A stretch of DNA of 64,000 bases from Acidimicrobiaceae bacterium (GCA_009837445.1 VXTM01000021.1:118767-182766), one strand, 5' to 3'; positions 38,051-63,161 are shown, counted from the stretch's first letter. A program made the numbers and translations. Notes: generated from the sequence alone by a model not told the origin.

Positions 38051-38053
38051 CCA

Positions 38054-38687: not shown

Positions 38688-38704
38688 GCCTAGGGAGGAC
38701 ATCA

Positions 38705-39673: not shown

Positions 39674-39690
39674 CAAGTCGGCCCCAAGTT

Positions 39691-39724: not shown

Positions 39725-39748
39725 ACCGCTGGAGAGGGGGTTCGTCAG

Positions 39749-40822: not shown

Positions 40823-40852
40823 CCGCCGGGGCTGACACCGAAAGGAAACCCA

Positions 40853-42217: not shown

Positions 42218-42276
42218 TACCGACACCCGGCCGCCCGGCTCATCGGGTCGCACTGCCGCGCGACTAGCTTGGGCGG

Positions 42277-43730: not shown

Positions 43731-44608
43731 TGGAGTGGCTCAACGCCATCGTCCAGGGGATCATGCTGGGCGGGCTGTTCGCGCTGTTTGCCACCGGGCT
43801 CTCGCTCGCCTTCGGGGTGATGCGCTTCGTAAACCTGGCCCACGGGGACCTGGCCATCCTCGGGGCATTCGTGGCCGTGTCCGTCACCTCCGCGCTGGGC
43901 CTCAACCCGTTCGTATCGCTGGTGATCGTGGTGCCCGTCATGCTGGCCACCGGGTACGCACTCCAGCTAGGCGCGTTCAACTTCACGATCAGCGCCGACC
44001 CGCTGCCATCGATCCTGGTCACGTTCGGACTCGGAATCGTGATCCAGAACGTGCTGCTCGAGACATACAGCGCCGACTCGCGGGGCCTGGACGTGGGCTC
44101 GATCGAGATCGAGAGCATCAGGATCACCGACGCCATCGCCATCGGCTGGATCCCGCTGATCACGCTGATCGTCGCGGTGGCAGTACTCGGAGCTCTACAG
44201 CTGATGCTGTCACGCACCCCGCTGGGTCGGGCCTTCAGGGCGGTCTCCGACGATCCGCCGACGGCCCGGCTCATGGGGATAAACGACCGCAACCTCTACG
44301 CGGTGGCCATGGGCATCGCCTTCGCCACCGTGGCCGTGGCCGGCGTCTTCCTCGGAATCAGGCAGAGTTTCGGGCCCCTCGACGGTCCGGCCCAGCTGCT
44401 GTACGCCTTCGAGGCAGTGGTCATCGGGGGCCTCGGGTCGGTGTGGGGCACTCTGGTGGGCGGGCTGCTGCTCGGCGTGGCCCACACCGTGGGCGGACAG
44501 TTCGAGGTTGCCTACGGCTACGGCTCCGGCCCTCTCGTCGGCCATCTCGTGTTCCTCGTGGTGCTCGCCACCAAACCCAGCGGCCTGCTCGGGCGGAGAG
44601 CCGAATGA
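43730..44608 (+). CDS. Branched-chain-type ABC transporter permease (LivH-like)
   Basis: The ATG overlaps the upstream stop. N-terminus MEWLNAIVQGIMLGGLFALFATGLSLAFGVMRFVNLAHGD. Confidence 0.85.
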   Translation: MEWLNAIVQGIMLGGLFALFATGLSLAFGVMRFVNLAHGDLAILGAFVAVSVTSALGLNPFVSLVIVVPVMLATGYALQLGAFNFTISADPLPSILVTFGLGIVIQNVLLETYSADSRGLDVGSIEIESIRITDAIAIGWIPLITLIVAVAVLGALQLMLSRTPLGRAFRAVSDDPPTARLMGINDRNLYAVAMGIAFATVAVAGVFLGIRQSFGPLDGPAQLLYAFEAVVIGGLGSVWGTLVGGLLLGVAHTVGGQFEVAYGYGSGPLVGHLVFLVVLATKPSGLLGRRAE

Positions 44609-45672
44609 CCGGGCACCGGGTCACCCGCTCGGACCGCCAGTCCACCGCGGGGCTGGCCGTGTCGGCCGTACTGCTGGTGGTGCTGTTCCTGCTGCCCTGG
44701 TGGGACAGCGACGGCAGCCTCCGGGTGCCGCTGGTCGCGATCCTCTACTACCTGGCGCTGGCGCAGATGTGGAACCTGCTGGCCGGGTTCGCGGGGCTGG
44801 TGTCGATCGGCCAGCAGATGTTCGTGGGCATCGGCGTGTACACGTTGCTGAGTTTCGCCGAGGACTTCGGCGTCGACCCCTACCTGTCGGTGCTGCTGGC
44901 CGGTTTGGTGGCGGCAATCCTGTCCCTGCCGGTGGCCGCCTTCGCCTTCCGCCTGCGGGGCGGGTACTTCGCCATCGGCACCTGGGTGATTGCCGAGGTC
45001 TTCCGGCTGATCGCGCTGGAGAGCGACTTCCTGGGCGGAGCCAATGTCCGGACCCTCACCCGGGAGTCGCTGGGCGGTTACTCGCTCGACACCCGCAACA
45101 CCGTCACCTACCTGATGGCCCTGGGACTGGCCGCAGGGGCCACCGCCATCGTGGTGCTGGTGCTGCGGTCACGACTGGGCCTCGCCCTGCGCTCCATCCG
45201 CGACAACCAGGAGGGGGCCCGGGGCCTGGGCGTGTCCGTAGGCAGGGCCAAGCTGGCGGTGTGGGTCATCTCCGCGTTCTGGACGGGCATGACCGGCGCG
45301 GTGATCCTGCTCCACAACCCGTCGACCCGGGCCGAGTCCGCCTTCAGCGTGTTGCGCTGGACCGCGCTGGTGGTGTTCATCGCCATCATCGGAGGCGTCG
45401 GCTCCACCACGGGGCCTATCGTCGGGGTGGCCATCTACTGGTTCGTGAGGGAGTTCCTCGAGGATGCCGAGGAGTGGCGGTTCATCATCCTGGGCTTAAT
45501 CGCGGCCGCCATGGCCATCATGGCCCCCAGAGGTGTCTACGGACTGCTCCAGAAGCGGTGGCCGGTCCAGTTCTTCCCCGTCCGCCGAAGACTTGTGGGT
45601 CCCGGTGTAGGCGGCCCCGCGCCCGGTGGCCCGGCCCAGCCGGTGGCCGACGCCGGCCACCCACCGGTGTGA
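44605..45672 (+). CDS. Branched-chain-type ABC transporter permease (LivM-like)
   Basis: The ATG overlaps the LivH-like stop (ATGA). The segment LALAQMWNLLAGFAGLVSIGQQMFVGIG is present. Confidence 0.8.
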   Translation: MTGHRVTRSDRQSTAGLAVSAVLLVVLFLLPWWDSDGSLRVPLVAILYYLALAQMWNLLAGFAGLVSIGQQMFVGIGVYTLLSFAEDFGVDPYLSVLLAGLVAAILSLPVAAFAFRLRGGYFAIGTWVIAEVFRLIALESDFLGGANVRTLTRESLGGYSLDTRNTVTYLMALGLAAGATAIVVLVLRSRLGLALRSIRDNQEGARGLGVSVGRAKLAVWVISAFWTGMTGAVILLHNPSTRAESAFSVLRWTALVVFIAIIGGVGSTTGPIVGVAIYWFVREFLEDAEEWRFIILGLIAAAMAIMAPRGVYGLLQKRWPVQFFPVRRRLVGPGVGGPAPGGPAQPVADAGHPPV

Positions 45673-46856
45673 CCGGTGCCGCCTACATCGTCGACGCGGT
45701 GCGAACGCCGGTCGGCAAGATCGGTGGGGGCCTAGCCGGGGTCCGCCCCGACGACCTGGCAGCCACCGTCATCGCGAACCTGCTCGAGCGCTCCCCCGGC
45801 CTCGATCCGGCCACCATCGACGATGTCCATTTCGGCAACAGCAACGGTGCGGGCGAGGAGAACCGCAACGTGGCCCGCATGGCCGCCCTGCTGGCCGGCA
45901 TGCCCACCTCGGTTCCCGGAACGACGGTCAACCGGCTGTGCGGATCGGGGCTGGAGGCCGTTGTCGGAGCCAGCCGGGCCATCGCGGTCGGAGACGCCGA
46001 CCTGTGCATCGCCGGCGGCGTCGAGTCGATGACCCGGGCTCCGTGGGTGGTGGCGAAGCCGGAGCGTCCCTACGAGCGCGGCCATCAGCAGATGCACTCC
46101 ACCACGCTGGGCTGGCGGCTGGTCAACCCGCGCCATCCTGATCGTTGGACGGTGCCTCTGGGCGAGGGAGCCGAGATTCTGGCCGAGAAGTACGCCATTA
46201 CCCGGGCCCTGCAGGACGGCTTCGCCCTGCGCAGCCATCAGAAGGCGGCCGCAGCCTGGACCCGCGGCGAATTCGCCGACGAGGTCGTGGGTGTCCATGG
46301 CGCCGAACTCGACCGCGACGAGACGATCAGGCCCGACACATCCCTCGACGGGCTGGCTCGGCTGCGACCGGTGTTCCGCCGCGACGGCTCGGTGACCGCA
46401 GGCAACTCCTCGCCCATGAACGACGGCGCCGCCGCGCTGCTGCTGGCATCCGAGGCCGGCCTCGCCTCGACGGGGCGGACACCCCTCGCGCGGGTGATGA
46501 GCCGGGCCGTGAGCGGCGTCGACCCGGATCTCTACGGCATCGGCCCGGTCGAGGCCGCCCGCACGGCTCTCAAGCGGGCCGGCATCGGCTGGTCGGACCT
46601 GGCCGCGGTCGAACTGAATGAGGCCTTCGCAGCCCAGTCACTGGCGTGTCTGGCGGAGTGGCCCGAGCTCGACCGGCGGATCGTCAACCCGCTGGGAGGC
46701 GCCATCGCCATCGGCCACCCCATCGGAGCCAGCGGGGCGCGCATCCTCACGACGCTGGCCCATCACCTGCGGCACCGGGGAGGCCGCTACGGCCTGGCCG
46801 CCATGTGCATCGGGGTCGGGCAGGGCATCGCGGTCACCATCGAGTCCTGCGCCTAG
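45669..46856 (+). CDS. Acetyl-CoA C-acyltransferase (thiolase II; PcaF-like by context)
   Basis: The GTG overlaps the LivM-like stop (GTGTGA). It has NRLCGSGLEAV (active-site Cys), NEAFAAQ, GHPIGASGARI and CIGVGQG. Confidence 0.85.
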   Translation: MTGAAYIVDAVRTPVGKIGGGLAGVRPDDLAATVIANLLERSPGLDPATIDDVHFGNSNGAGEENRNVARMAALLAGMPTSVPGTTVNRLCGSGLEAVVGASRAIAVGDADLCIAGGVESMTRAPWVVAKPERPYERGHQQMHSTTLGWRLVNPRHPDRWTVPLGEGAEILAEKYAITRALQDGFALRSHQKAAAAWTRGEFADEVVGVHGAELDRDETIRPDTSLDGLARLRPVFRRDGSVTAGNSSPMNDGAAALLLASEAGLASTGRTPLARVMSRAVSGVDPDLYGIGPVEAARTALKRAGIGWSDLAAVELNEAFAAQSLACLAEWPELDRRIVNPLGGAIAIGHPIGASGARILTTLAHHLRHRGGRYGLAAMCIGVGQGIAVTIESCA

Positions 46857-46975
46857 AGGCCGAGCGGATAGGGCGGCGTGGTCATTCCCGCTCTTGTTCG
46901 CTGCGCTCACGGGCCGCTCGGGCCACGGCCCCGCCCGTATGAACCGGGTTTGGCTCGCCTGCCCGCGGGGCCTCT
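46855..46975 (-). repeat. Dispersed repeat, copy 4: a full 96-bp copy in minus orientation (46880-46975) abutted by a plus-oriented solo head (46855-46872)
   Basis: TAGAGGCCGAGCGGATAGGG is followed by GGTCATTCCCGCTCTTGTTCGCTGCGCTCACGGGCCGCTCGGGCCACGGCCCCGCCCGTATG...CCCGCGGGGCCTCT. It fills the gap between the convergent thiolase and dioxygenase stops. Confidence 0.85.
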
Positions 46976-46978
46976 GGG

Positions 46979-47800
46979 CTAGCCCGTCGGCTCGAGTACG
47001 AAGTCGTAGTCGCAGCGACCGCCGTTCATGTCGACGATCAGCGAGTCGCGCACACCGAAGACCACGTCACTGTCGAGGAAGTCGCTCTCGCTGTCGAAGA
47101 GGTGGGTGATCACCGTCTTGTGCCCCGGCGCCGAGACTACGAAGTGCACGTGCGCGGGACGCCAGTTGTGGCGTCCGGTGGCGTGGAGCAGCGCCCCGGC
47201 GGGGCCGTCGTCGGGAACCGGGTACGACACCGGCCGCACGGTGCGCACCTCGTAGCGCCCGTCGACGCCGGTGGTGAAGACGCCCCGCATGTTCAACGGG
47301 GTCTGATCCGAGTCCTGGACATCGTAGAAGCCGTTGCTGGCCGCCTGCCACACATCCAGTGTCGCCCCCTCGATCGGTCCGCCTCCCAGCGAGCTGACCT
47401 CCCCCAGTATCGTCAGCGGCTCGTCCGCATCCATGGGGTCCACGACTATCGAGTCGCCCATCTGGTGCGGTGTGGCTCCCTCCACGTGGAACGGGCCGAA
47501 GACGGTGGGCTCGGTCGTCCCCTCGGCCCCCATCTGGTTGATCATCTCCACCAGCATCGAAACGCCGAGCGTGTCCGACAGCAGGATGAACTCCTGGCGC
47601 TTCTCGTCGCACATGTGCCCGATGTCGGCGAGGGCCTTCATGCTCGCGAACCACTCCTCGCGAGTTAGGCCGACTTCAAGAACAAACTCGTGCATGTGCC
47701 GGATTGCGCACTTCATGATCTCAGCGAGCCTCGCGTCGGGAGCGTCATCAAAGCGGGACAGGACCTCCGCCAGGTGCTCGGCGGGCGTGATGTTGGACAC
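46979..47800 (-). CDS. Intradiol ring-cleavage dioxygenase (hydroxyquinol 1,2-dioxygenase-like)
   Basis: GTG start with RBS AAGGAG. The N-terminal helical domain (RLAEIMKCAIRHMHEFVLEVGLTREEW) and the segment GRHNWRPAHVHF are typical of catechol/hydroxyquinol 1,2-dioxygenases. Confidence 0.75.
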   Translation of the reverse strand: MSNITPAEHLAEVLSRFDDAPDARLAEIMKCAIRHMHEFVLEVGLTREEWFASMKALADIGHMCDEKRQEFILLSDTLGVSMLVEMINQMGAEGTTEPTVFGPFHVEGATPHQMGDSIVVDPMDADEPLTILGEVSSLGGGPIEGATLDVWQAASNGFYDVQDSDQTPLNMRGVFTTGVDGRYEVRTVRPVSYPVPDDGPAGALLHATGRHNWRPAHVHFVVSAPGHKTVITHLFDSESDFLDSDVVFGVRDSLIVDMNGGRCDYDFVLEPTG

Positions 47801-47892
47801 GGATGCTCCTTTCTCCGGTGCGCGGTTATCCCGCGGCCGGGCGCTCCGGACAGGCGCTCGGCCGCGGGAGTCGCGGTCGGTAATGGACGTGC

Positions 47893-48852
47893 TCAGTACT
47901 CGATGGTCTCGAGTTGGGCGAGCAGCTCCTGGCGGGAGTCCTCGAACTGGGGCGAGATCATGATCTGCGCGCCGAGGCTGTCCCTGGGCTCGTCGATGGC
48001 GAAGTGCTCGGGCTTGGTGTAGGTGGCCTCGAACAACGGTCCGCCCGGGGTGCGCACGTAGATCGAGTAGAAGTAGCCCCGGTCCTTGACGTCGGACACA
48101 TCGGTGTAGCCGAGGCCCTCCAGGAACAGCTTGACGGCCATCTGCGACTCGAGGCTGTCCACGCTGAAGGCGCAGTGGTGCACGTAGCCCTCACCGAACG
48201 TCCAGCTTCCAGGCTCGCGGTTCGGTTCGAGGATGTAGTCGACGATGGCCCCAGGGCCGCCGTCACCCATCTCGTAGCGGGTGGCGTTGCCGTCGCCCTC
48301 GACCATGCGGCTCCCCCAGCCCATCTGCATGAACTGGTCGGTCAGCTCCATGTCGCGCACCGAGCAGCTGATGCTGTGCACGCCCCGGACGCCGAACTCA
48401 TCGGGGATGTCGGGGTGGGTGGCTGGGGTGCGCTCGTCGTCGGCCACCCCGACCAGCTCGTAGTCGATCCCGCAGGGATGCTGGAAGGCGAGGCGCTTCT
48501 CGCCGAAGCGCTCGACCGGGGTCACCTCGAAGCCGTACTCCTCCAGGCGGTTGCGCCACCAGTCCAGCGACGACTCCGGCACCGACAGCGTGAGCACGCT
48601 GATCTGGCCGCTGCCCTTCTTGGCGGTGAGGCCGGCGTGACGGAACGGGAAGGTGGTGACCAGGGTGCTCTCCTCGCCGACGTCGTTGCCGTAGTAGAGG
48701 TGGTAGATGGGGGCTTGGCCGTCGTACAGGAGCGTCTTCTTGACGCTCTTGAGGCCCAGCACCTCCGTGTGGAAGTCGTAGTCCTCCTGGGCGCCGCCCA
48801 CATTCAGGGTGATGTGGTTGTGGCCACTGAGGATCGATGTCGGATTGTTCAC
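47893..48852 (-). CDS. Two-domain VOC-superfamily ring-cleaving dioxygenase (MhqO/PcpA/LinE-like hydroquinone-type extradiol enzyme)
   Basis: The GTG at 48852 lies 6 nt after RBS GAAGGAG. The segment GHNHITLNVGGAQEDYDFHTEVLGLKSVKKTLLYDGQAPIYHLYYGN...TTFPF matches my recollection of the MhqA/E/O family N-terminus. Confidence 0.75.
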   Translation of the reverse strand: MNNPTSILSGHNHITLNVGGAQEDYDFHTEVLGLKSVKKTLLYDGQAPIYHLYYGNDVGEESTLVTTFPFRHAGLTAKKGSGQISVLTLSVPESSLDWWRNRLEEYGFEVTPVERFGEKRLAFQHPCGIDYELVGVADDERTPATHPDIPDEFGVRGVHSISCSVRDMELTDQFMQMGWGSRMVEGDGNATRYEMGDGGPGAIVDYILEPNREPGSWTFGEGYVHHCAFSVDSLESQMAVKLFLEGLGYTDVSDVKDRGYFYSIYVRTPGGPLFEATYTKPEHFAIDEPRDSLGAQIMISPQFEDSRQELLAQLETIEY

Positions 48853-48981
48853 GGCGGCTCCTTCGATTGACGGGATTGCTGCCAGCCGACACGTCGAGCC
48901 CGTTGACGCGGCGACCCGGCGGGAGCGCGATACTACGCCCGTGCCGACTCTAGCAGCAGCGCCGTACGTCTGCCGGTAAAC

Positions 48982-49010
48982 TGTCCGCATAACGGTCAAC
49001 CGTCAGTTGT
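48982..49010. promoter_or_regulatory. Operator-like sequence shared with the 39709-39752 region
   Basis: TGTCCGCATAACGGTCAACC followed by CGTCAGTTGT. Compare TGTCTGCATAGCGGACACC ... CGTCAGTTGT at 39709-39752. It lies in the divergent region between two VOC genes, next to the IclR regulon. Confidence 0.35.
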
Positions 49011-49044
49011 GCCGGCGAAGCCGAACATCAGAGAAAGGACTGCC

Positions 49045-49578
49045 ATGAGCCAAGCCGTAGCCCAGAGGCTTCACCACAACGCGTACGTCACCAAGGACCA
49101 GGAGGCCACTCGGGCCTTCTACGAGGACATTCTCGGCTTCCCGCTGATCGCCACATGGTCGGAGGCCGACGAGCTGTTCGGCGCGGTCCGGGTCTACTGC
49201 CACACCTTCTTCGGCCTCCAGGACGGCAGCGCGCTGGCCTTCTTCCAGTTCGCCGAAGAAGAGGACCAGAAGCTCTTCGACCCCGCCCTCGTGCCGTCGC
49301 CGTTCCGCCACATCGCCCTCAAGGTCGACGCCGACACCCAGGCCGACCTCGAGCGGCGCATCGAGGAGTCCGGCTGGAACCCGGAGGGGGGCAGCTTCGT
49401 GCTGGAGCACGGCTACTGCCGCTCGTTCTACACCCACGACCCCAACGGCATGCTGCTCGAGTTCACCGTCGACGCCCCCGACGCGGAGGAGATCGCGGCC
49501 GACCGGGCCGCCGACGCCCACGAGACCCTGCGGCGCTGGCTAGCCGGCGACCACACCAGCAACAACAACTACCGCTAG
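49045..49578 (+). CDS. VOC-family protein (glyoxalase/bleomycin-resistance/dioxygenase fold)
   Basis: The ATG at 49045 follows RBS GAGAAAGGA. Segments LHHNAYVTKDQEATRAFYEDILGFPL and FRHIALKV. Confidence 0.7.
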   Translation: MSQAVAQRLHHNAYVTKDQEATRAFYEDILGFPLIATWSEADELFGAVRVYCHTFFGLQDGSALAFFQFAEEEDQKLFDPALVPSPFRHIALKVDADTQADLERRIEESGWNPEGGSFVLEHGYCRSFYTHDPNGMLLEFTVDAPDAEEIAADRAADAHETLRRWLAGDHTSNNNYR

Positions 49579-50393
49579 TCCGGCGCAGGCGCCTCCGAGA
49601 CTGGCAGCATGGCCAGGTTCGACCATTCGCGTGTCACCGCGGCCGCGGTGTCGAGCAGCGCGGGGAGGTACTCGCCGGTCAGGTGCTCGATGGACGTCTC
49701 GGCCGCGTACACGGTCACGTTCATGGCCGCCGCGATGCGGCACCCGTCGTCGCGCACCGGGGCGGCGATGGAGCGGATGCCGACCGTCAGCAGCTCGTCG
49801 GACAGGGCCCAGCCCCGCTCGCGCACGTCGGCCAAGTCCTCGTCCAACTGCGCCCGTGAGGGCACCACCCGCGGGATTATCCCCGACGTCGACGGCCGCT
49901 CCAGGACCGCGTCGAGCTCGTCGGCGGTGTGCTCCGACAGCAACACCTTGCCCATCGAGGTGGCTACCGCCGGGAAGCGGGTGCCGATGCTCACCGAGAG
50001 CGCGATGATCTTGGCCACCGGGACCCGGGCCGTGTACACGATGTCGCTCCCGTCGAGCTGCGACATCGAGCTCGACTCGTGCGTGCGGGCCACAAGGGCC
50101 ACCAGATGGGGACGGGCGACGTCCCACAGGCCCTGGGCCGCGATGGCAGCCGTACCGATCTCGAGGACCTTGGTGGTCAGCGAGTACGCGCCGCCCACGG
50201 AGCGGACGTATCCGAGCTGTTCAAGGGTCATCAACAGCCGCCTGGCGGTGGGCCTGGCCAACCCGGTACGGGAGGCCACCTCGCTGACGGTCAACTCGAT
50301 GGCGGTGGGGCCGAATGCCTTGAGGACGTCGAGGCCCCGGGCCAGAGCCTCCACGAACTCGCGCCGCCCCCTCTCCTCCGCCGCCGGGCTCAT
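49575..50393 (-). CDS. IclR-family transcriptional regulator (PcaR/PobR-like by context)
   Basis: The N-terminal wHTH reads FVEALARGLDVLKAF...LTVSEVASRTGLARPTARRLLMTLEQLGYV. The C-terminal part is an IclR effector domain. Confidence 0.85.
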   Translation of the reverse strand: MSPAAEERGRREFVEALARGLDVLKAFGPTAIELTVSEVASRTGLARPTARRLLMTLEQLGYVRSVGGAYSLTTKVLEIGTAAIAAQGLWDVARPHLVALVARTHESSSMSQLDGSDIVYTARVPVAKIIALSVSIGTRFPAVATSMGKVLLSEHTADELDAVLERPSTSGIIPRVVPSRAQLDEDLADVRERGWALSDELLTVGIRSIAAPVRDDGCRIAAAMNVTVYAAETSIEHLTGEYLPALLDTAAAVTREWSNLAMLPVSEAPAPD

Positions 50394-50420
50394 GACACGA
50401 ACCCGGTCGTCGAGCCGGCC

Positions 50421-51620
50421 ATGACTGCGGAGACCCGGGCCACCGACCCTTCAGCGACCGGCACGGCCGCTGAGACTGCCCCGCTCGACGGGATCCTCGT
50501 CGCCGACCTGTCCCGGGTGCTGGCCGGGCCGTACTGCACCATGCTCCTCGCCGATCTGGGGGCGACGGTCATCAAGGTGGAAAGCGCGGCCGGCGACGAC
50601 ACTCGGGCTTGGACCCCGCCGGAGAAGGACGGCATATCGACTTACTTTATGTCCATCAACCGGAACAAGCGGTCGATCGTTCTGGACTTCCGCGACCCAG
50701 ACGACGTGGCGCTGGTCCACGAGCTGTTCCGGCGGGCCGACGTGGCCATCGAGAACTTCAAGCCGGGTGCGCTGGCCAAGTTCGGGCTCGACTACGAGAC
50801 TGCCCGGGCCGTCAATCCGGCCCTCATCTACACCTCGATCAGCGGTTTCGGCACGGCCGAGGGTGCGTCGCTGCCCGGTTACGACCTGGTGGTGCAGGCC
50901 GTGTCGGGGCTAATGAGCCTCACCGGCGACGCCGACGGCCCCGCCTACCGGGCGGGCATCTCGGTGTTCGATGTCATGACCGGGCTCCACGCCACCATCG
51001 GGATCCTGGCCGCCCTCCACCACCGCAGCCTGACCGGCCAGGGCCAGTTGGTGGAGCTGAACTTGCTGTCGTCGGCGCTGTCGGGCCTCGTCAACCAGAC
51101 CGGCGCCTATACCGCTTCGGGGACCGTGCCCCACCGAATGGGCAATGCCCACCCGAGCGTCTACCCCTACGAGGTGATACCGGCCAAGGACCGGGACATG
51201 ATCATCACCGCCGCGAACGACCGGCAGTTCAAGGCCCTGTGCGAGGTTCTGGGCATCGGCGAGCTGGCTACCGACGAGCGATTCAGGCTCAACGCCGACC
51301 GCACCCGCAACCGTGACCAGATGCACTCGCTGCTCATGGAGCGGGTGGCCCAATGGAACGCCGACGACCTCTTCATCGCCCTGAACGACGCGGGAGTGCC
51401 CTGCGGGCCCATCAACTCCATCCGCGAGGGCATCGAACTGGCCGAGCGTCTCGGCCTCGAGCCCAGGGTGACCCTCGGCGCCGGCGACGAGAGTGTCGAC
51501 CTGGTGCGCAATCCCATCGGGTTCAGCAATGCCTCGCTGCGCTACGAGCACCCGCCCCCCGGACTGGGAGAGCACAGCGACGACCTTCGGGACTGGCTGT
51601 CCAAGAGGCCGAGCGGATAG
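50421..51620 (+). CDS. Family III CoA-transferase (CaiB/BaiF family)
   Basis: Segments LDGILVADLSRVLAGPYCTMLLADLGATVIKVE, ENFKPG and SGFG. The last 5 codons (KRPSG-stop) are encoded by the head of repeat copy 5. Confidence 0.85.
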   Translation: MTAETRATDPSATGTAAETAPLDGILVADLSRVLAGPYCTMLLADLGATVIKVESAAGDDTRAWTPPEKDGISTYFMSINRNKRSIVLDFRDPDDVALVHELFRRADVAIENFKPGALAKFGLDYETARAVNPALIYTSISGFGTAEGASLPGYDLVVQAVSGLMSLTGDADGPAYRAGISVFDVMTGLHATIGILAALHHRSLTGQGQLVELNLLSSALSGLVNQTGAYTASGTVPHRMGNAHPSVYPYEVIPAKDRDMIITAANDRQFKALCEVLGIGELATDERFRLNADRTRNRDQMHSLLMERVAQWNADDLFIALNDAGVPCGPINSIREGIELAERLGLEPRVTLGAGDESVDLVRNPIGFSNASLRYEHPPPGLGEHSDDLRDWLSKRPSG

Positions 51621-51699
51621 GCGAGACGATGCGGCCCATACGGCGCGAGGCCGTGGCCCGAGCGGCCCGTGAGCGAAGCGAACAAGAGCGGGAATGACC
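51604..51699 (+). repeat. Dispersed repeat, copy 5 (best full-length reference copy, 96 bp)
   Basis: AGAGGCCGAGCGGATAGGCGAGACGATGCGGCCCATACGGCGCGAGGCCGTGGCCCGAGCGGCCCGTGAGCGAAGCGAACAAGAGCGGGAATGACC. Confidence 0.85.
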
Positions 51700-51793
51700 C
51701 CCTGTCGGCGCGAGGCGCTTGCACCTATCCGCGTGGCCCCTACGCCGCAGCCCGACACATAGACAGCCGAATTACCGATCACGGGAGCGGGCA

Positions 51794-52591
51794 ATGACCG
51801 GAGCCACCTACCGCACCGGCCTCGGCACCTCCGACGCCGACAGCATCACCGTGCTGGGCCACAGCCTCGCCGACGACCTGCTCGGTCAGGTGTCGTTCGG
51901 CGAGCTCGCATTCTGGCTGATGGCCAAGCACCGCCCGACGCCGCAGCAGCGCAACATGTTCGAAGCCGTTCTGGTCGCGCTGGCCGATCACGGCTTCACC
52001 CCCACCGCCATCGCGGCCCGGGTGACGCTGCTGAGCGCACCCGAATCGATCCAGGGTGCGCTGGCGGCAGGGCTGCTCGGAGGCGGAGACCGCTTCCTCG
52101 GCGTGACCGAGAACGCGGCCCGGTTCCTGCACACCGCTCTCGAGGGCTGCGACTCGCTGCCCACCGATGAGGCCGGCTGGGACGACCTCGCCGCCGAGGT
52201 GGTGGCCCGGACCCGGGCTGAGGGCGGGTTCGTGCCGGGACTAGGTCACCCTGTCCACAAGGACGGCGACCCCCGCACGCCGGCTCTCTTCGAGCTTGCC
52301 CGCCGCAACGAACTGTTCGGCCCCCATCTCGAGCTGCTCGCAGCCATCGGCCGGGCTCATCCGGCGGTACTGGGCCGCAGGCTGCCCCTCAACGGCGCCG
52401 GCGCCTGCGGTGCGGTGCTGGGCGACATCGGCCTGCCGCTGGGCGTCGCCCGCGGCGTTGCGCTGCTGGCCCGCTGCGCCGGGCTGCTGGGCCATCTGGC
52501 CGAGGAACTCGACGACCCCATAGGCAACGACATCTTCATGGCGGTGGACCGAAACATCGACTACCGGCCGCCCCCAGCGCCGCCCGCCTGA
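51794..52591 (+). CDS. Citrate-synthase-fold protein of the short citryl-CoA-lyase type
   Basis: 265 aa. Segments HGFTPTAIAARVTLLSAPESIQGALAAGLLGGGDRFLG and VPGLGHPVHKDGDPR (GHxxxxxxDPR, as in citrate synthase/CCL). Confidence 0.65.
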   Translation: MTGATYRTGLGTSDADSITVLGHSLADDLLGQVSFGELAFWLMAKHRPTPQQRNMFEAVLVALADHGFTPTAIAARVTLLSAPESIQGALAAGLLGGGDRFLGVTENAARFLHTALEGCDSLPTDEAGWDDLAAEVVARTRAEGGFVPGLGHPVHKDGDPRTPALFELARRNELFGPHLELLAAIGRAHPAVLGRRLPLNGAGACGAVLGDIGLPLGVARGVALLARCAGLLGHLAEELDDPIGNDIFMAVDRNIDYRPPPAPPA

Positions 52592-52609
52592 CTGCGGGCA
52601 GCCGCCCAG

Positions 52610-52623
52610 CTGCTCGGCCTCTA
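52610..52623 (-). repeat. Solo repeat-head-like motif on the minus strand (TAGAGGCCGAGCAG) whose TAG is the protease stop codon
   Basis: The plus strand reads ctgctcggcctcta. It lies between convergent stops at 52591 and 52621. Confidence 0.4.
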
Positions 52624-53466
52624 GTCGCAGGCGGGGACTTCGACGGGCTGATTGAGGTCGGACGAGGCGAGCAGCGTGGCCAGCGGACCGGCCCGGGTGG
52701 CGTACGCCACCCCTCCCCCGCCGCGGCGCGACGCGCCCCAGGCGACGCCCACAGCCGTGGTCTGGCCGTCTACGCCGGTCACCAGCGCAGCGCCGGAGTC
52801 GCCCACCTCCGTCTGGGCGGCGAGGAGCCACGACTGTCGCTCGATGCGCTCGTCCCCGTTCACTATTTCCGTCCGCACCGTGACCGGACGGTCGATGCGG
52901 AACGGCGTCGGGTCCGGGGATGCCTCGGCCTCCCAGGCCAGCACCGCGCCGACGGTGCCGTCAGGAACGGCCTCGCTCAACGGCAGGGGACGCAGGCCGG
53001 CACCGGAGACCCGCAGCACGGCCAGATCGTTCACGGCGTCGAAGGCCACCAGCACCGCGCTGAGCTCCCGGCCGTCGTGCAATTCGACCGTCGGCTCGTC
53101 CATGCCGACCATCAGATGGGCGATGGTGACGACGACGTCGCCGTCCGTGACCGCGAAGCCACTCCCCTCGCGCACGATCCCGCGGCAGGCCGGACCGTAG
53201 ACCCTCACCGACGACTCCACCGCCGCGGCGAGATCCGCTCTCGACAGGCGGTGGTCGTCAGGCACCGGACCCGGGTCGGGCGGGTCGTCGAGCGGCGGCC
53301 TGATCGACGAGGTCGCTGGGACCGTCCCAGCACCTAGCGGAGCCTGTGGCTGGCGGTTACCCGACGCCGTGGTCCCGTCCTCGAGCACCGCCACCGCCGC
53401 GATGACCACGCCCGCAACGACAGCCGCGACAGCCACCCCGAGTAGGAGCCACCGCCCCGACGTCAC
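52621..53466 (-). CDS. Membrane-anchored trypsin-like (S1 family) serine protease
   Basis: It has an N-terminal TM (WLLLGVAVAAVVAGVVIAAVAVL), TIAHLM (His), NDLAVLRV (Asp) and GDSGAALV (Ser). The GTG start overlaps the trmI stop (GTGA). Confidence 0.7.
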   Translation of the reverse strand: MTSGRWLLLGVAVAAVVAGVVIAAVAVLEDGTTASGNRQPQAPLGAGTVPATSSIRPPLDDPPDPGPVPDDHRLSRADLAAAVESSVRVYGPACRGIVREGSGFAVTDGDVVVTIAHLMVGMDEPTVELHDGRELSAVLVAFDAVNDLAVLRVSGAGLRPLPLSEAVPDGTVGAVLAWEAEASPDPTPFRIDRPVTVRTEIVNGDERIERQSWLLAAQTEVGDSGAALVTGVDGQTTAVGVAWGASRRGGGGVAYATRAGPLATLLASSDLNQPVEVPACD

Positions 53467-54239
53467 TGCTCGATCAGCCGGCTGACGGTGAGGAAGCCGG
53501 TGTGGGCCACCATCCGGTGGTTGGGGCGCACCGCGTCACCCTCCACATGCCATCCCCGCTGGAGGACCTCGACCGTCTCATGGAGGTCGAAAGGAGAATC
53601 GTCCAGTGTCCGGCGCAGTCTCTGGACCTGCACGATGCTCGGCGTGTAGGCCAGCAGGATCCCGCCGGGGCGCAGGGCCACCGAGGCGTGAGGCACCACC
53701 TGCCAGGGCTCAGGCAGGTCCAGCACCACCCGGTCGAGCCCGGTCTCGTCGATGCCCTCGTAGACGTCGCGCACCTCGGTGCGGTACCGCTCCAGCGCCT
53801 CCGCCCCGCAGAAGCGCTCCACGTTGGCTCGGGCCCGGGCGCAGAAGTCCTCGCGCCGCTCGTATCCCGTCACCACCGCGCCCGCCCGCAGCAGCGCCAT
53901 CGACAGCGCCCCGGAGCCGATCCCGGCCTCCAGCACCCGTGCGCCAGGAAAAATGTCGGCCAGCATCAGGATGGGGCCGATGTCCTTGGGGTAGATGACC
54001 TGCGCCCCCCGGGGCATCTTCAGCACCGCGTCGGCCAGCGTCGGCCGCAGCGCCAGGAACGAGGAGCCCCGAGTGGACCGCAGCCTGGATCCCTCCGGCG
54101 CGCCGATGATCTCGTCGTGGGCGATCACCCCGGTATGGGTGTGGAACTCGCGGCCGGAGGCGAGGTCGAACAGGTAGCGGCGGCTCTTCCGATCGATTAG
54201 CAGGACCGGCTCGCCCGGCTCGAACGGCCGTCCGGTCAT
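53463..54239 (-). CDS. trmI: tRNA (adenine58-N1)-methyltransferase
   Basis: The ATG overlaps the ttuA stop (ATGA). Segments MPRGAQVIYPKDIGPILMLADIFPGARVLEAGIGSGALSMALL (SAM motif) and VVLDLPEPW. It resembles the Rv2118c family. Confidence 0.85.
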   Translation of the reverse strand: MTGRPFEPGEPVLLIDRKSRRYLFDLASGREFHTHTGVIAHDEIIGAPEGSRLRSTRGSSFLALRPTLADAVLKMPRGAQVIYPKDIGPILMLADIFPGARVLEAGIGSGALSMALLRAGAVVTGYERREDFCARARANVERFCGAEALERYRTEVRDVYEGIDETGLDRVVLDLPEPWQVVPHASVALRPGGILLAYTPSIVQVQRLRRTLDDSPFDLHETVEVLQRGWHVEGDAVRPNHRMVAHTGFLTVSRLIEQ

Positions 54240-55174
54240 CGTCTCTCGCGATCGGTGAAGCGCACCGGCGCCGGCCCGGCGGCGCGCTCGGCCAGGCGGC
54301 AGAAGGCGCACACCTGAGCGTCGGTGGGCGACCCGCAGCGCTCGCACGGCGCCAACTCGCCGCGGTCGCGCTCCACCTCGGCCCGGAAACGGTCCGACGC
54401 CCTGTCCAGGAAACCAAAGTAGAAGTCGTGCTTGGCGCCGGGCGACTCGACCTCGATGTCGTTGAGCGCGGCCTTGTAGGCCAGGTGCTTGTTGCCGGCC
54501 GCCATGGGGCATTCCTCGACGATGTAGTCGATCCCTCGCAGCAGGCAGTAGGCCGCGGTCTCCCGCTCGCCCAGGCGGACCAGCGGCTTGATCTTGCGGG
54601 GGAAGCCGTCGCGGGCCTCCAGCACCGGCAACTGCCGCCCGAGGTACTCGGTCTGCCACCGCAGGGTGTTGCCCATCAGCACGGCCGCCTCGTCGTCGAG
54701 GTTGTGGCCCGTGGCGAGAGCGTCATAGCCGCCGCGGCGGGCCGCGTCGTCGAAGAGGTGCCGCTTCGACAGACCGCAGGCCGAGCACGGCGCCCTCTTG
54801 GCGGCCCGGGCACCGGCGGGAACGTCGAAGCCGTGGGCCTCGGGCAGGTCGACGGTGTGGAGGGTCAGGCCCCGACTCTCGGCGTACCGGCGGGCGTAGC
54901 GGGCGGACTCCTTGCTGTAGTCGCCGATGCCGAGCCCCAGGTAGAAGCCGTCGACGGCGTAGCCGAGCTCGGTGAGCAGATCCCAAACCGCCAGGCTGTC
55001 CTTGCCTCCCGACACCGCCACCAGCACCCGGTCGCCGTCGGCCAGCATGTCGTAGCGGCGGATGGCCTTGGCCACCTGGTCCCGGCACAGGCGCAGGAAG
55101 TGCTCGACGCAGAAGTTGGCGTTGTGGCGGCGCACGTCGATCACCGCCGGCCCGCGGCACACCCGGCACTTCAT
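54236..55174 (-). CDS. ttuA: PP-loop tRNA 2-thiolation enzyme (TtuA/Ncs6-type)
   Basis: It has an N-terminal CxxC...CxxH zinc finger (KCRVCRG...FCVEHF), PP-loop VAVSGGKDS, cluster cysteines [10 protein letters not shown] and a C-terminal CERCG...CAFC finger. Confidence 0.8.
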
Positions 55175-55395
55175 GGGTGCGCTCCAGCCCGCCCGTCGCC
55201 GGCGCCGCCGGAGATCACGCTGCGCACCTCCACCTCGGAGCGGTCCGGGAGCGTCCGGTCGCCCGGCACCAGCTCACCGTTGCAGATCACCAGGTGCGAT
55301 TCCCGGTTGAGGCCGAGACGGTCGAGGAGGGCGCGCACCGTCACCGGTCCCTGCACCTCCAGTTCCCTGGTCGGGTTGCGCAGCACGACTCGCAT
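55171..55395 (-). CDS. ThiS/MoaD/TtuB-like beta-grasp sulfur-carrier protein with a 10-residue extension after the Gly-Gly
   Basis: 74 aa. The segment [29 protein letters not shown] is followed by [10 protein letters not shown]. Its stop overlaps the ttuA start (ATGA). Confidence 0.7.
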
Positions 55396-55422: not shown

Positions 55423-55650
55423 TCAGGAGCCGTCCGGTTCGACGTTGCGGATCTCGATACCGGTGGACGGCTCCAGACGCTCCGACAGCACCGTCATCGG
55501 TTCGCGGGGGCCGACCGCCCTCCGCACCACCTTGACCGCGCTGGTCGCGACGAACGCCGCGAACCAGAACCGCGAGCTGCCGAGCAGGCCCCTTCGCATC
55601 GCTTGGCGGCTGATCCAGGCTGCCGCGGTCCGCCCGCCCGGGGGGCCCAC
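55423..55650 (-). CDS. Hypothetical small protein
   Basis: The ORF starts 4 nt after the upstream stop (GTG 55650; alternative ATG 55599). It has one hydrophobic stretch (FWFAAFVATSAV). No family is recognised. Confidence 0.35.
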   Translation of the reverse strand: MGPPGGRTAAAWISRQAMRRGLLGSSRFWFAAFVATSAVKVVRRAVGPREPMTVLSERLEPSTGIEIRNVEPDGS

Positions 55651-55653
55651 CGG

Positions 55654-55866
55654 TCAGATCCGCCTTACTTCGACAACTGTCCTGCGGAGCCGGCCGGCCC
55701 TGCGTCCCAGCAGGTAGGCGAGGCCGATCAGGACACTGGCGGCTGCGGCCGCACCGTAGGCGACCTTGACGAGCAGCGGCTGGGTCTCGCCGTCGATCTC
55801 GGCTTGGAGGTCGCGCAGCGCATCCTCCAGCGAATCGCGGGTTATCCGCTCGGACTCCGCGCTCAC
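55654..55866 (-). CDS. Hypothetical small membrane protein (70 aa)
   Basis: The GTG at 55866 overlaps the upstream stop (GTGA). It has an N-terminal amphipathic helix and one TM segment (VAYGAAAAASVLIGLAYLL). Confidence 0.4.
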   Translation of the reverse strand: MSAESERITRDSLEDALRDLQAEIDGETQPLLVKVAYGAAAAASVLIGLAYLLGRRAGRLRRTVVEVRRI

Positions 55867-56162
55867 CCGAGTCCCCTCTTGCCGACCTGGCGCACCAGCA
55901 GCGCTATCACGCCGCCCAGCGCCGCGACGACGATCAGGTACGGGATCCACGAGAGACTCCCGGCGAAGACGGTCCCGGTCTCGGTCTGCAGGGCCCGCAG
56001 CAGCGACAGCATCAGCAGGATCACCCCCACCACGAGCGCGAGGCTGCCGGCCAGGCCCATCGAGACCCAACGGCCAGCGCCCTGGAGCGGGCCGAGCAGC
56101 TCCTGGCGGACGTACGCCTTAACCAGGTCCACGACTTCTGCTACGCCCTGCCTGCGTGCCAA
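55863..56162 (-). CDS. Small two-TM membrane protein (actinobacterial holin-X-like family)
   Basis: 99 aa. Segments DLVKAYVRQEL, then TM1 MGLAGSLALVVGVILLMLSLL and TM2 IPYLIVVAALGGVIALLV. Confidence 0.5.
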   Translation of the reverse strand: MARRQGVAEVVDLVKAYVRQELLGPLQGAGRWVSMGLAGSLALVVGVILLMLSLLRALQTETGTVFAGSLSWIPYLIVVAALGGVIALLVRQVGKRGLG

Positions 56163-56196: not shown

Positions 56197-56844
56197 CTAC
56201 CCGCTGCCGAGCTCGATCCGGGCCCGCAGCAGCTCGGTTGCGTCGGCCACCAGGCGGCGGGCCAGCGCGAGCCTCTCGGTGGCTGTGGGGGTGCTCAACA
56301 CCTTGAACCGGTCGAAAGGTCCCAGTGGGGCCAGGGCCGCGGCCCGGTAGGAGGCCATGGACGGGTCCCGGCCCAGCTCGACGGGACCGGGCGCCTCGGC
56401 CTCCGCGTGACCCAGATGCCCGATCTGCAGGCGGAGGGCCAGTCCGCGGGCTTCGGTGACCAGTCCGGCGAGCTCGTCGATGGACTCCGGGTCCGCCCTC
56501 ACGACGGGCTCCGGCTCGTCGGGCCAGTCCTCGATCTCGGCCCAAGGATGCGGGTCGTCGATAAGCCACCGCCGGACCCGGATGCGGCGGTGTCCCAGGG
56601 CCATCACCAGCAGCCGCCCGTCGGGCACCGGCCGGGCCTCAACCACGCGGGCCATGGTGGCGACATCGCACCGCACATCGGAGCCGCCGACCTCTCGGCC
56701 CCGCTCGATCAGCGCCACCCCCATCTGCCGGTCGCCCCCGAGGACGGTCTCGAGCATGGTCAGGTAGCGGGGCTCGAAGACCTGCAGCGGCAGCGGCGAT
56801 CCGGGCAGCAGGACCGATTGGAGCGCGAACATGGGAGTGGCCAT
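56197..56844 (-). CDS. LON substrate-binding (Lon N-terminal, PUA-like) domain protein
   Basis: N-terminus MFALQSVLLPGSPLPLQVFEPRYLTMLETVL...MGVALI. Confidence 0.8.
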   Translation of the reverse strand: MATPMFALQSVLLPGSPLPLQVFEPRYLTMLETVLGGDRQMGVALIERGREVGGSDVRCDVATMARVVEARPVPDGRLLVMALGHRRIRVRRWLIDDPHPWAEIEDWPDEPEPVVRADPESIDELAGLVTEARGLALRLQIGHLGHAEAEAPGPVELGRDPSMASYRAAALAPLGPFDRFKVLSTPTATERLALARRLVADATELLRARIELGSG

Positions 56845-56859: not shown

Positions 56860-58455
56860 CTATTCGCTGTCGGCCAACTCAGCGATCGGGGCGACCACCG
56901 GCTGCCTCGCCGGCGCCGGATGCAGCGCCGCGTCCGCGGAGGACGGACCGTAGGGGTGGCCCGACACCGCACGGATCAGGCCCTGCTGCAGATCGTTGCA
57001 GGTGCTCAGGAACAGGCCCTCGCGGTTGGCGATCAGAGAGAACGTGAGCACGTCGCCGTTGCGGGCCACGGTCACTCCGGCCAGCGCCGACACATCGTTG
57101 AGGGTCCCGGTCTTGGCCCACACCGTGCGGGACAGCGGGCTCTGCCCGTCGGGGCCGGCGCCGGCCCCTGCGGCCGGCTCGAGGCCGGCGTCGCAGTCGC
57201 GGAGGGTCCCGCTCTCCCCCACCACGGCCAGGCCCCTTACGAGCGGCGAGTCCGGCCCGGCCCGAAGGAGCAGCTCGGCAATGAGGTCGCAGGTCAGCCG
57301 GTTGTGAACCGACAGGCCCGAGCCGTCGGCGATGACGATCCCGGCAGTCTGAACGCCCAGCAGACGCTCCAGCACGTCCTGCACGCCCTGGACCGCCTCG
57401 GCCCGGGCCGATCCCGACAGCCGCCTGCCGATCTCCTTGAGCAGCATCTCAGCCGTGGTGTTGTCGGAGTTGCGCAGCATGCGGGCGACGATCTCCGCCA
57501 TCGGCGGCGACTCGACGGTGGCCAGCGAGCGAAGCTCCGACAGCGGCGGCGCAGTCCCCTTGCCGGCGTCGGCGGAAACACCGACTCCCCGGGCCTCGAT
57601 CAGTCCGTCCAGTACCTGGGCCGCATGGAGGGCGGGATCCGGGGCCCGCACGTTCTGGCTCCGGCTGGCGGAGTCGGCCGAGGGCGGGAAGGAGACGTAG
57701 CCGTCGTTCAGCAGCAGCGCAGAGAGCGGGCCGACCTGGTTGTTGTTGACGTAGGACCGCTTCCAGACGGAGCCGGCGTCGGGCTCGACGACCTGGGTCG
57801 TGTAGTCCCGCTCCGCCTCCGGGAAGCGGGACTCGTCGGCCACGATGCCCCCCTCGACGGTGAGGATGCCCTGCGCCCGTAGGGCAGCGGCCGCTTCGAC
57901 CGCCAACTCGGTGAAGTCGGTGTGGACGATGGGCTGGTCGAAGCGCCTCACGTAGGCGAGCGTCGACAGGACCGGATCGCCCCCTCCCACCAGGTAGACG
58001 TCGCCCACGAGCACGCCGTCGGCGGCTGTGCTCAGCGCGTCGGCGCGGACGAGCACCTCGGTCGTGTACGTCGCGGCCGGACCTGCGATCTCGAGGATCG
58101 CGGCCGCGGTGACGACCTTCATCAACGAGGCCGGCACCATCAGCGCATCAGCCCGTTCCGAAACGACGGGCGCCGCGCCGCGGTAGACGGCCAGGCACGT
58201 CTGCGGCGGAGCGCTCGGCTCCTCGACCACACCGGAGAGCCTCTCGAGCAGGCGGGTCCGGGTCACGGGCGCCGAGACCCATCCCGGCGTCCGGCGCACG
58301 CTCAGTATCGGCGTGGCCACCACCATTTCGGGCGGACCGGTCTCGGTGATCCACCCCGGGTCGGAGGAGGCGTCGGTACGCCGAGCCTGGACGAACGAGC
58401 CGACCGCGGTGGTCAGCAGGGCCGCCAGCAGGATCGAAACCAGGATCCGACGCAT
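56860..58455 (-). CDS. dacB: D-alanyl-D-alanine carboxypeptidase/endopeptidase (PBP4, peptidase S13)
   Basis: The ATG at 58455 gives the signal peptide MRRILVSILLAALLTTAVG. It has PASLMKVVT (SxxK), DGSGLS (SxN-like) and AKTGTL (KTG). The track start at 58533 lies in repeat copy 6. Confidence 0.8.
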   Translation of the reverse strand: MRRILVSILLAALLTTAVGSFVQARRTDASSDPGWITETGPPEMVVATPILSVRRTPGWVSAPVTRTRLLERLSGVVEEPSAPPQTCLAVYRGAAPVVSERADALMVPASLMKVVTAAAILEIAGPAATYTTEVLVRADALSTAADGVLVGDVYLVGGGDPVLSTLAYVRRFDQPIVHTDFTELAVEAAAALRAQGILTVEGGIVADESRFPEAERDYTTQVVEPDAGSVWKRSYVNNNQVGPLSALLLNDGYVSFPPSADSASRSQNVRAPDPALHAAQVLDGLIEARGVGVSADAGKGTAPPLSELRSLATVESPPMAEIVARMLRNSDNTTAEMLLKEIGRRLSGSARAEAVQGVQDVLERLLGVQTAGIVIADGSGLSVHNRLTCDLIAELLLRAGPDSPLVRGLAVVGESGTLRDCDAGLEPAAGAGAGPDGQSPLSRTVWAKTGTLNDVSALAGVTVARNGDVLTFSLIANREGLFLSTCNDLQQGLIRAVSGHPYGPSSADAALHPAPARQPVVAPIAELADSE

Positions 58456-58499
58456 CGCCAAGCATGGTACGCCGCGCGTCCCAGCGGACCCGCTCACCC

Positions 58500-58588
58500 A
58501 GAGGCCGAGCGGTTGGCGGCGAGCCCAGCCCATACGGACGAGGCCGTGGCCGAGCGGCCCTCAGGTCGCAGCGAACCAGAGCGGGACC
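58500..58588 (+). repeat. Dispersed repeat, copy 6 (diverged)
   Basis: AGAGGCCGAGCGGTTGGCGGCGAGCCCAGCCCATACGGACGAGGCCGTGGCCGAGCGGCCCTCAGGTCGCAGCGAACCAGAGCGGGACC. Confidence 0.75.
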
Positions 58589-62258: not shown

Positions 62259-63161
62259 GTGACGGAGCGGGACCGTCTGCAGCGCCTCGAGGACGAGAGC
62301 GTCCACATCATCCGGGAGGTGGCCGCGCAGTTCCGCAAACCGGTGATGCTGTACTCGATTGGCAAGGACAGCTCGGTGATGCTGCACCTGGCCCGCAAGG
62401 CCTTCCATCCCGGACCGATCCCCTTCCCGCTGCTGCACATAGACACCACCTGGAAGTTCTCGGAGATGATCGCCTTCCGGGACCGCATGGCCGGCGAGAT
62501 CGGTTTCGATCTGATCGTGCACACCAACCAGGACGGGCTGGCCGCGGGAATCAACCCGTTCGACCACGGATCGGCCCACTACACCGACGTGATGAAGACC
62601 CAGGCCCTCAAGCAGGCCCTCGGCGCGGGGCGTTTCGACGCCGCCTTCGGCGGGGCCCGGCGCGACGAGGAGCGATCACGAGCCAAGGAGCGGGTGTTCA
62701 GCTTCCGGGACGGCCAGCACCGCTGGGATCCCAAGAACCAGCGGCCCGAGCTGTGGAATCACTACAACGGCCGGGTCCGCAGCGGGGAGAGCATCCGCGT
62801 GTTCCCTCTGAGCAACTGGACCGAGCTCGACGTGTGGCACTACGTCGGGGCCAACGAGATCGAGATAGTGCCGCTGTACCTCGCCGCGCCCCGTCCGGTG
62901 GTGGAACGCGACGGCACCCTGTTGATGGTGGACGACAGGCGCTTCCGGTTCGAGGCGGGCGAGCGGCCCAAGACGCGATCGGTGCGCTTCCGCACGCTCG
63001 GCTGCTACCCCCTGACCGGGGCCGTCGAATCGACCGCCGCCACCGTTGCCGAGGTGGTGGCCGAGATGGCTGCAGCAACCCGCTCAGAGCGGGAGGGCCG
63101 GGTCATCGACCACGACCAGTCGGGGTCCATGGAGCACAAGAAGCGCGAGGGCTACTTCTGA
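62259..63161 (+). CDS. cysD: Sulfate adenylyltransferase subunit 2
   Basis: Segments [40 protein letters not shown] (PP-loop) and HIDTTWKF. Confidence 0.9.

Follow-up and report, generated by a model that had tools for sequence, protein, structure and literature searches.

The closest described counterpart of the genes reported here is the pathway of Thermus thermophilus in which TtuA and TtuB, together with TtuC and TtuD, make 5-methyl-2-thiouridine at position 54 (m5s2U54) of transfer RNA (tRNA). Reviews describe 2-thiolation of uridine 54 (U54) as a thermophile-specific stiffening of the tRNA elbow and state that m5s2U54 is not found in mesophiles (PMC6313347, PMC7025502). In Thermus, neither C5 methylation nor 2-thiolation of U54 depends on the other (PMC6418473), and N1-methyladenosine at position 58 (m1A58) speeds sulfur transfer by TtuA (PMC6418473, PMC7912444). 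Here we describe a locus encoding a TtuB-like sulfur carrier, TtuA and a TrmI-type methyltransferase in a 64,000-nucleotide stretch of DNA from an Acidimicrobiaceae bacterium (GCA_009837445.1, VXTM01000021.1:118767-182766), which we call the window. We consider it likely, with a probability of roughly 0.75, that this translationally coupled ttuB-ttuA-trmI operon modifies both partners of the reverse-Hoogsteen pair of the tRNA T-loop.

The locus comprises four overlapping genes on the minus strand. The TtuB-like carrier gene (positions 55171-55395, 74 amino acids) is followed by ttuA, which encodes a PP-loop enzyme (54236-55174, 312 amino acids), by the methyltransferase gene trmI (53463-54239, 258 amino acids), and by a gene for a membrane S1 protease (52621-53466, 281 amino acids). 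Read from the sequence, all three junctions are 4-nucleotide overlaps: ATGA between the carrier gene and ttuA (CCATGAAG), ATGA between ttuA and trmI (CGATGACC), and GTGA between trmI and the protease gene (CAGTGACG). The true start of trmI is the ATG at 54239 and not that of a longer open reading frame (ORF) beginning with GTG, in agreement with homologues and public gene calls. Pfam assigns ThiS and SAMP2 to the carrier, TtuA_LIM_N and a PP-loop domain to TtuA, TrmI-like_N and GCD14 to TrmI, and Trypsin_2 to the protease. The same four gene calls and the same overlaps occur in six public contigs that encode an identical 312-residue TtuA, among them the NCBI metagenome-assembled genomes (MAGs) GCA_009845925.1 and GCA_009841985.1; the closest named relatives of these contigs are Acidimicrobiia MAGs. 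The sequence and these independent gene calls thus confirm the overlapping minus-strand genes reported in a preliminary description of this DNA. A scan for promoters and terminators between 52.3 and 59.2 kb gave zero matches, such a scan being uninformative at the G+C content of about 70% that prevails throughout the window, and a tRNA scan of the window, intended for inspection of T-loops, found no tRNA genes.

The linkage of the three genes is conserved well beyond this genome. A scan limited to one genome per species returned more than 596 relatives of TtuA, of which the best 80 (57-94% identity) were followed; all of these belong to Acidimicrobiia or to unclassified Actinomycetota MAGs. 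The window proteins were then mapped on 81 non-redundant, species-level Actinomycetota loci. A carrier gene lies directly upstream of ttuA in 80/80 informative loci, with the exact 4-nucleotide overlap in 44, and in 79/79 the next gene downstream is trmI, in the same orientation; two loci without trmI reach a contig edge and were counted as uninformative. At the ttuA/trmI junction the overlap is exactly 4 nucleotides in 50 of the 79 loci, and 72 have a gap of at most 30 nucleotides. This gene arrangement is not due to chance. Rather than being peculiar to one genome, the trio is what Acidimicrobiia and a sister clade of Actinomycetota normally have. Three of the MAGs that carry Acidimicrobiia-type synteny, with 68-72% TtuA identity, are titled Bifidobacterium or Acidobacteriota (L014, L027, L017), which probably reflects mislabelling or contamination of the bins.

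Outside Actinomycetota we sampled nine bacterial loci, from a Thermus sp., Marinithermus hydrothermalis, bacterium HR23, a member of Dehalococcoidia, two further genomes and three Armatimonadota, and checked the Thermus gene order directly on contigs. In all nine, a ThiS-like gene is directly upstream of ttuA. Next to ttuA, trmI is missing in Thermus, Marinithermus, HR23, Dehalococcoidia and the two further genomes. The preliminary description had taken these genes to be unlinked in Thermus, which is correct for trmI and incorrect for carrier and thiolase, as the adjacency of these two in Thermus sp., Marinithermus and the other loci demonstrates. In 3/3 Armatimonadota loci, by contrast with the other six, trmI overlaps or abuts ttuA; der, plsY and a RidA gene lie upstream, and proteasome genes are absent from these loci. 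A rough neighbor-joining tree places the Armatimonadota TtuA with Thermaceae and not with Actinomycetota. Since both the gene context and the TtuA lineage differ, the trio was probably assembled independently at least two times. The idea that such a trio would be unusual for an actinobacterium has therefore given way to an arrangement that is universal among the informative Actinomycetota loci and recurs in another phylum.

This recurrence is the strongest argument for a functional linkage, and it bears directly on the best of the competing explanations, that the synteny was inherited and the genes are not functionally coupled. In that case trmI would belong to an ancient arc/Pup-proteasome neighborhood, ttuB-ttuA would have come to lie beside it by happenstance, and the overlaps would reflect genome compaction. 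Part of the data fits this well. The order ttuB-ttuA-trmI-(marP)-arc is found in 57 related loci: arc is encoded 0.5-5 kb beyond trmI or marP, in the same direction, and most of these loci continue with dop and prcB (prcB being counted where the locus sequence reaches it). An evidently unrelated protease is attached by the same kind of 4-nucleotide overlap, and Rv2118c lies near mpa in Mycobacterium tuberculosis, a species that is not known to have TtuA. Against this stand the Armatimonadota trio, which has its own context free of proteasome genes and a TtuA allied to that of Thermaceae, and the exact ttuA/trmI overlap, which is kept in those 50 loci across relatives of 57-94% identity. In addition, the promotion of TtuA thiolation by m1A58, which the preliminary description had mentioned, is biochemically documented (PMC6418473). 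On balance we regard inherited synteny as an unlikely explanation of the locus.

The identity of the PP-loop enzyme bears on a second alternative, in which the TtuA homologue thiolates another target, such as the wobble uridine U34, as archaeal NcsA and eukaryotic Ncs6 do, or a substrate other than tRNA, and no T-loop module exists. TtuA and NcsA/Ncs6 have their fold, cofactors and carrier type in common (PMC6225789), 2-thiolation of position 54 is unreported in mesophiles (PMC6313347), and the window TtuA scores under the NCBIfam equivalog cut-off. However, its resemblance to TtuA is far stronger than to NcsA. Among solved structures it matches T. thermophilus TtuA (5gha/5b4e) with 299 bits (E 4e-88) at 51% identity over residues 1-296, that is, over the full length, and Pyrococcus horikoshii TtuA with 246 bits, compared with 89 bits for NcsA and 37 for TilS; the NCBIfam scores are 262 for TtuA, 110 for NcsA and 64 for TtcA. 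The gene is also linked to that of an A58 enzyme, and a C-type MnmA for 2-thiouridine at position 34 is present in other Actinobacteria (PMC7025502). Thiolation of a different target is accordingly improbable in our estimate.

The catalytic residues are those of the Thermus enzyme. In an alignment with Thermus TtuA, the PP-loop SGGKDS at residues 55-60 is invariant, as are both zinc fingers (Cys3/Cys6/Cys22/His25 and Cys277/280/289/292), and the [4Fe-4S] ligands Cys130, Cys133 and Cys222 as well as Lys137 match the Thermus residues, whose roles have been described (PMC3980101, PMC6225789). The N-terminal domain PF22082, TtuA_LIM_N, is recognized with 38 bits. The window enzyme does not group with TtcA or TilS, the outcome that would have spoken against the first assignment; by these comparisons it is a TtuA orthologue, as first proposed, and would be predicted to act as a U54 2-sulfurtransferase. 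The locus shares further traits with the Thermus pathway, in that the gene for a ubiquitin-fold Gly-Gly carrier is directly upstream of ttuA and the E1 is unlinked. It differs from it in the 4-nucleotide overlap that joins trmI to ttuA, in the tail of the carrier (Thermus TtuB stops at Gly-Gly, while 10 residues follow here) and in its hosts, which are largely non-thermophilic Acidimicrobiia.

The methyltransferase is likewise well placed within its family. Its product contains PF08704 (GCD14, 93 bits) and PF14801 (TrmI-like_N, 66 bits), and its best structural match is M. tuberculosis Rv2118c (1i9g, 220 bits), followed by Pyrococcus abyssi TrmI (182 bits) and T. thermophilus TrmI (2pwy, 160 bits); the alignments with 1i9g, 3mb5, 2pwy and 5c0o are full-length. 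The TrmI assignment of the preliminary description is thereby upheld. With Rv2118c and the T. thermophilus enzyme it shares a two-domain layout, TrmI-like_N plus a GCD14 Rossmann fold, and a loose association with the arc/mpa proteasome neighborhood, and orthology to these two proteins predicts that it methylates N1 of A58. What sets it apart is translational coupling to ttuA, whereas in Thermus and Marinithermus trmI lies apart from ttuA. One further candidate, a gene for a 248-residue protein that overlaps ttuA in a locus of our set (L090), was considered as a divergent TrmI and rejected, having no significant similarity.

The carrier matches Pfam ThiS with 31.5 bits (cut-off 22.5) and SAMP2 with 29.8 bits, and its best match in the PDB is T. 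thermophilus TtuB (5ztb, E 1.4e-5), to which it aligns end to end; the first identification as a ThiS-like carrier is thus borne out. In this alignment Gly63-Gly64 of the carrier correspond to the C-terminus of TtuB. Sulfur carriers end in Gly-Gly, but the encoded protein continues for ten residues, the Gly-Gly codons being at 55204-55209 and the tail at 55174-55203 (minus strand, read from the sequence). Such tails are the rule among relatives. The motif VISGG is invariant across the related loci and the sequence beyond it is variable, unconserved apart from frequent Ala; only 9/80 related carriers terminate at Gly-Gly. Tails of 1-2 residues are found in 54 loci, of 3-5 residues in seven and of 8-34 residues in eight, and three loci encode an in-frame fusion of carrier and TtuA. 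Outside Actinomycetota, Gly-Gly is followed by HGALP in Marinithermus, QG in HR23, CG in Dehalococcoidia, and DHAVCQV and DHAVREV in Armatimonadota (L088:3808-4014, L091:3768-4004, L092:3801-4004, L094:2805-3020 and L095:2805-3020). Precursor-type TtuB therefore seems widespread.

The in-frame fusions (L083:1937-3157, L084:5797-7011 and L085:5737-7041) represent a larger population. A database search with one fusion protein returned 120 clusters at 72-100% identity, all of them fusions of 377-424 residues except for a single 338-residue match without the carrier domain. In these proteins VISGG is followed by a linker of 2-12 residues and then by [M]KCRRC, with the internal Met missing in some. 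A single polypeptide of about 400 residues that combines TtuB and TtuA is found in a large clade of uncultured Actinomycetota, one 90% cluster having 1078 members. By analogy with ubiquitin fusions, a free Gly-Gly would require cleavage of these proteins, and the mature carrier of the window presumably also gains its Gly-Gly C-terminus after cleavage. Sulfur carriers that are made as precursors or fusions and cut at Gly-Gly are known from Pseudomonas QbsE/QbsD and from mycobacterial MoaX, a fusion of MoaD and MoaE. The present carriers resemble these in having residues past Gly-Gly or, in the sister clade, a fused partner enzyme, from which obligatory cleavage is implied. They differ in that there is no gene for a JAMM/MPN+ peptidase nearby and in serving a tRNA thiolation pathway instead of siderophore or molybdopterin synthesis. 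Because adenylation and thiocarboxylation take place on the terminal Gly, at its free carboxylate (PMC3980101), tailed and fused carriers imply a maturation peptidase specific for Gly-Gly.

Precursors of this kind invite comparison with ubiquitin. In the bolder version, the TtuB-like protein would be a true bacterial ubiquitin analogue whose precursor or fusion is cleaved at Gly-Gly and conjugated to other proteins, the adjacency of arc-dop-pup-prcBA would mark a second tagging route beside Pup, and non-thermophiles would thiolate U54 as one output of this system; we see this as a long shot. A narrower proposal makes the carrier mainly a ubiquitin-like modifier, processed at Gly-Gly, conjugated to lysines and tied to Arc and the Pup-proteasome, with thiolation secondary. 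Thermus TtuB is indeed conjugated to Lys137 of TtuA and to TtuC, and a JAMM mutant alters thiolation (PMC3980101); Lys137 is invariant in the window TtuA, the carrier tails and TtuB-TtuA fusions are reminiscent of the precursors of ubiquitin, the cluster adjoins arc-dop-pup-prcBA in most relatives, and archaeal NcsA and SAMP2 are reported to associate with proteasome components (PMC4048286). Yet this proposal is very improbable, as no conjugation machinery was found among the window ORFs scanned, the position of trmI accounts for the adjacency to the proteasome genes, operon and proteasome cluster are 18 kb apart in the window, and Armatimonadota and Thermus carry the carrier without a proteasome.

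Returning to the T-loop operon, the steps could be arranged as follows. Co-translation would yield the TtuB precursor together with TtuA and TrmI, and TrmI would use S-adenosylmethionine to form m1A58. A peptidase encoded elsewhere would trim the ten extra residues of the carrier to leave -Gly-Gly, and the trimmed carrier would be adenylated and thiocarboxylated by an E1-like adenylyltransferase and a cysteine desulfurase, also encoded elsewhere. TtuA, as a [4Fe-4S] PP-loop enzyme, would then adenylate C2 of U54 and, by way of its [4Fe-4S] cluster, replace the C2 oxygen with sulfur delivered as the thiocarboxylate on the C-terminal Gly of the carrier. The expected product is 2-thiouridine (s2U54), or m5s2U54 in the event that C5 of U54 is methylated as well. 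Making the three proteins by co-translation accords with the stimulatory effect that m1A58 is known to have on TtuA.

Several points weigh against this model. Its function in Acidimicrobiia is deduced from sequence comparison, m5s2U54 has been reported solely from thermophiles (PMC6313347), and record names place the hosts in sponges, lakes, soils and mires. As encoded, the carrier would be nonfunctional unless its tail is processed off. A Pfam search of 56 window ORFs found no ThiF/MoeB-type E1, JAMM protein, rhodanese or cysteine desulfurase. The 262 bits of TtuA miss the cut-off of 450 of NCBIfam NF049949, a Pyrococcus-type model; this model represents the archaeal type, and the bacterial Thermus enzyme is the nearer relative. 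Finally, trmI neighbors arc in the wider synteny, so the linkage could in part be inherited gene order and not functional coupling.

With respect to partner enzymes, the preliminary description had observed that the operon includes no E1-like activator, which is correct and extends to the other window ORFs that were scanned. Beside ttuA in the sampled loci of other phyla we likewise saw no E1, JAMM protein, rhodanese or desulfurase. The absence of an E1 from the window is consistent with the situation in Thermus, in which TtuC is a shared E1 encoded elsewhere and unlinked (PMC3980101). The sole sulfur-related gene among the ORFs scanned encodes a CysH-like phosphoadenosine phosphosulfate/adenosine phosphosulfate (PAPS/APS) reductase (62259-63161, plus strand) and adjoins genes for transketolase and transaldolase.

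The fourth gene of the locus is of a different nature. The protease (Trypsin_2, 54 bits) has a His/Asp/Ser triad, and its alignment with DegS spans TIAHLM, NDLAVL and GDSGAAL; a single N-terminal transmembrane helix precedes an HtrA/DegS-like catalytic domain, and the protein has two Cys. With the MarP model NF033740 it scores 84.5 bits (cut-off 250), covering positions 176-389 of 390. As the match is confined to the C-terminal half of the model, the window protease is a truncated MarP derivative. It shares with the MarP (Rv3671c) family the HtrA/DegS-like domain and its triad, two Cys including a C-terminal one, and a membrane anchor, but it does not have the full architecture of a four-helix N-terminal membrane domain joined to the protease domain, having one helix in its place. 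The gene that follows trmI in most relatives specifies a protein of 385-393 residues, in which a membrane domain of several helices at the N-terminus is combined with a trypsin domain, two Cys and a C-terminal TGPCL-like motif, and two positional orthologues (L035 and L016) are full-length MarP, at 304 and 262 bits over the whole model, both above the cut-off.

MarP, HtrA and DegS enzymes work outside the cytoplasm, and one Arg before the helix with acidic residues after it suggests the same topology for the window protein. Of about 69 loci long enough to tell, 45 have a protease gene after trmI; the gene is absent from Ilumatobacteraceae-like loci, from Armatimonadota and from the downstream position of the fusion clade. 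The operon protease was considered as the enzyme that trims the carrier and was rejected, both for its MarP/HtrA envelope type, with an N-in anchor, a Cys pair and multi-helix full-length orthologues, and for its absence from about one third of loci, from the fusion-clade downstream position and from Armatimonadota. We know of no link between the MarP family and tRNA modification. The remark in the preliminary description that the protease has no evident role in tRNA modification therefore holds, whereas its inclusion in the modification module does not, and the protease is probably a syntenic passenger outside the tRNA module. Directly upstream of the carrier-TtuA fusion, an HtrA-type protease is encoded at L084:4633-5748 (trypsin and PDZ domains) and at L086:4796-5752 (a protease-domain tblastn match only). 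The presence of an S1 envelope protease beside the module in two arrangements could be a coincidence or could reflect a shared regulon.

The four genes form the 3' end of a longer series. Nine co-directional genes run on the minus strand from 58533 to 52621 with a largest internal gap of 34 nucleotides, so that the overlaps first described stand and the boundaries of the four-gene unit do not; this unit probably belongs to the nine-gene array. The five upstream genes, all on the minus strand, encode a PBP4/S13 carboxypeptidase (dacB, 56860-58533, Pfam), a stand-alone LON substrate-binding-domain protein (lonN, 56197-56844, Pfam) and three small predicted membrane proteins (55863-56162, 55654-55866 and 55423-55650). 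The gaps from dacB through to the carrier gene are 15, 34, -4, 3 and 27 nucleotides, a further GTGA overlap lying between small membrane protein genes. One of these small proteins weakly resembles actinobacterial Holin-X. Most of the 80 related loci keep dacB, lonN and the gene for a 99-residue protein in synteny, and in most relatives the five upstream genes accompany the operon.

The Pup-proteasome cluster itself is complete and is at 21389-35196 in the window (minus strand; Pfam calls). It consists of arc (33442-35196), dop (24696-26213), pup (24317-24511; 64 amino acids, ending in GGE), prcB and prcA (22804-24554) and pafA (21389-22780). Two WYL/PafBC-like regulators are encoded beside it at 19376-21344, and the genes of an amino-acid-type ABC transporter (26260-33406) interrupt the cluster between dop and arc. 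The sister clade has the gapless order ttuBA-trmI-arc-dop-pup-prcB. In the window, the protease gene and arc are about 18 kb apart, with genes for aromatic catabolism and transport in between (35200-52600), whereas in L008, the nearest relative that is arranged differently, arc follows about 0.5 kb after the protease gene; the 18-kb block thus has the appearance of an insertion, specific to this lineage, into an otherwise conserved gene order. Its genes encode MetE-like and VWA/CoxE proteins, hydroquinone- and catechol-type dioxygenases, an iron-containing alcohol dehydrogenase, a Liv-type ABC transporter, a thiolase, glyoxalases, an IclR regulator, a family III CoA-transferase and a citryl-CoA lyase. 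The whole nine-gene array belongs to a conserved actinobacterial neighborhood upstream of the Pup-proteasome genes. Elsewhere in the window, a 547-residue ORF (10604-12247, minus strand) has two separate Thy1/ThyX domain matches and about twice the usual ThyX length, and it may be a tandem-duplicated flavin-dependent thymidylate synthase.

All three core proteins belong to characterized families, and the adjacency of ttuB and ttuA is general. What is new is the lineage, which is mostly non-thermophilic, the conserved coupling to trmI, the adjacency to Pup-proteasome genes and the occurrence of precursor and fused carriers. Literature searches found no earlier description of any of these four features, a weak indication of absence given that most subscription journals are outside their coverage. 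The carrier tails and fusions point to a Gly-Gly-specific maturation protease in bacteria. Moreover, a mostly non-thermophilic bacterial class keeps close orthologues of TtuA and TtuB, coupled to an A58 methyltransferase whose product stimulates TtuA, and the operon makes the thermophile restriction of T-loop thiolation directly and inexpensively testable in cultured Acidimicrobiia. If the modification is really made, the enzyme-level dependence of s2U54 on m1A58 would be mirrored in a gene arrangement that came together no fewer than two times, and the role of this modification would not be confined to heat.

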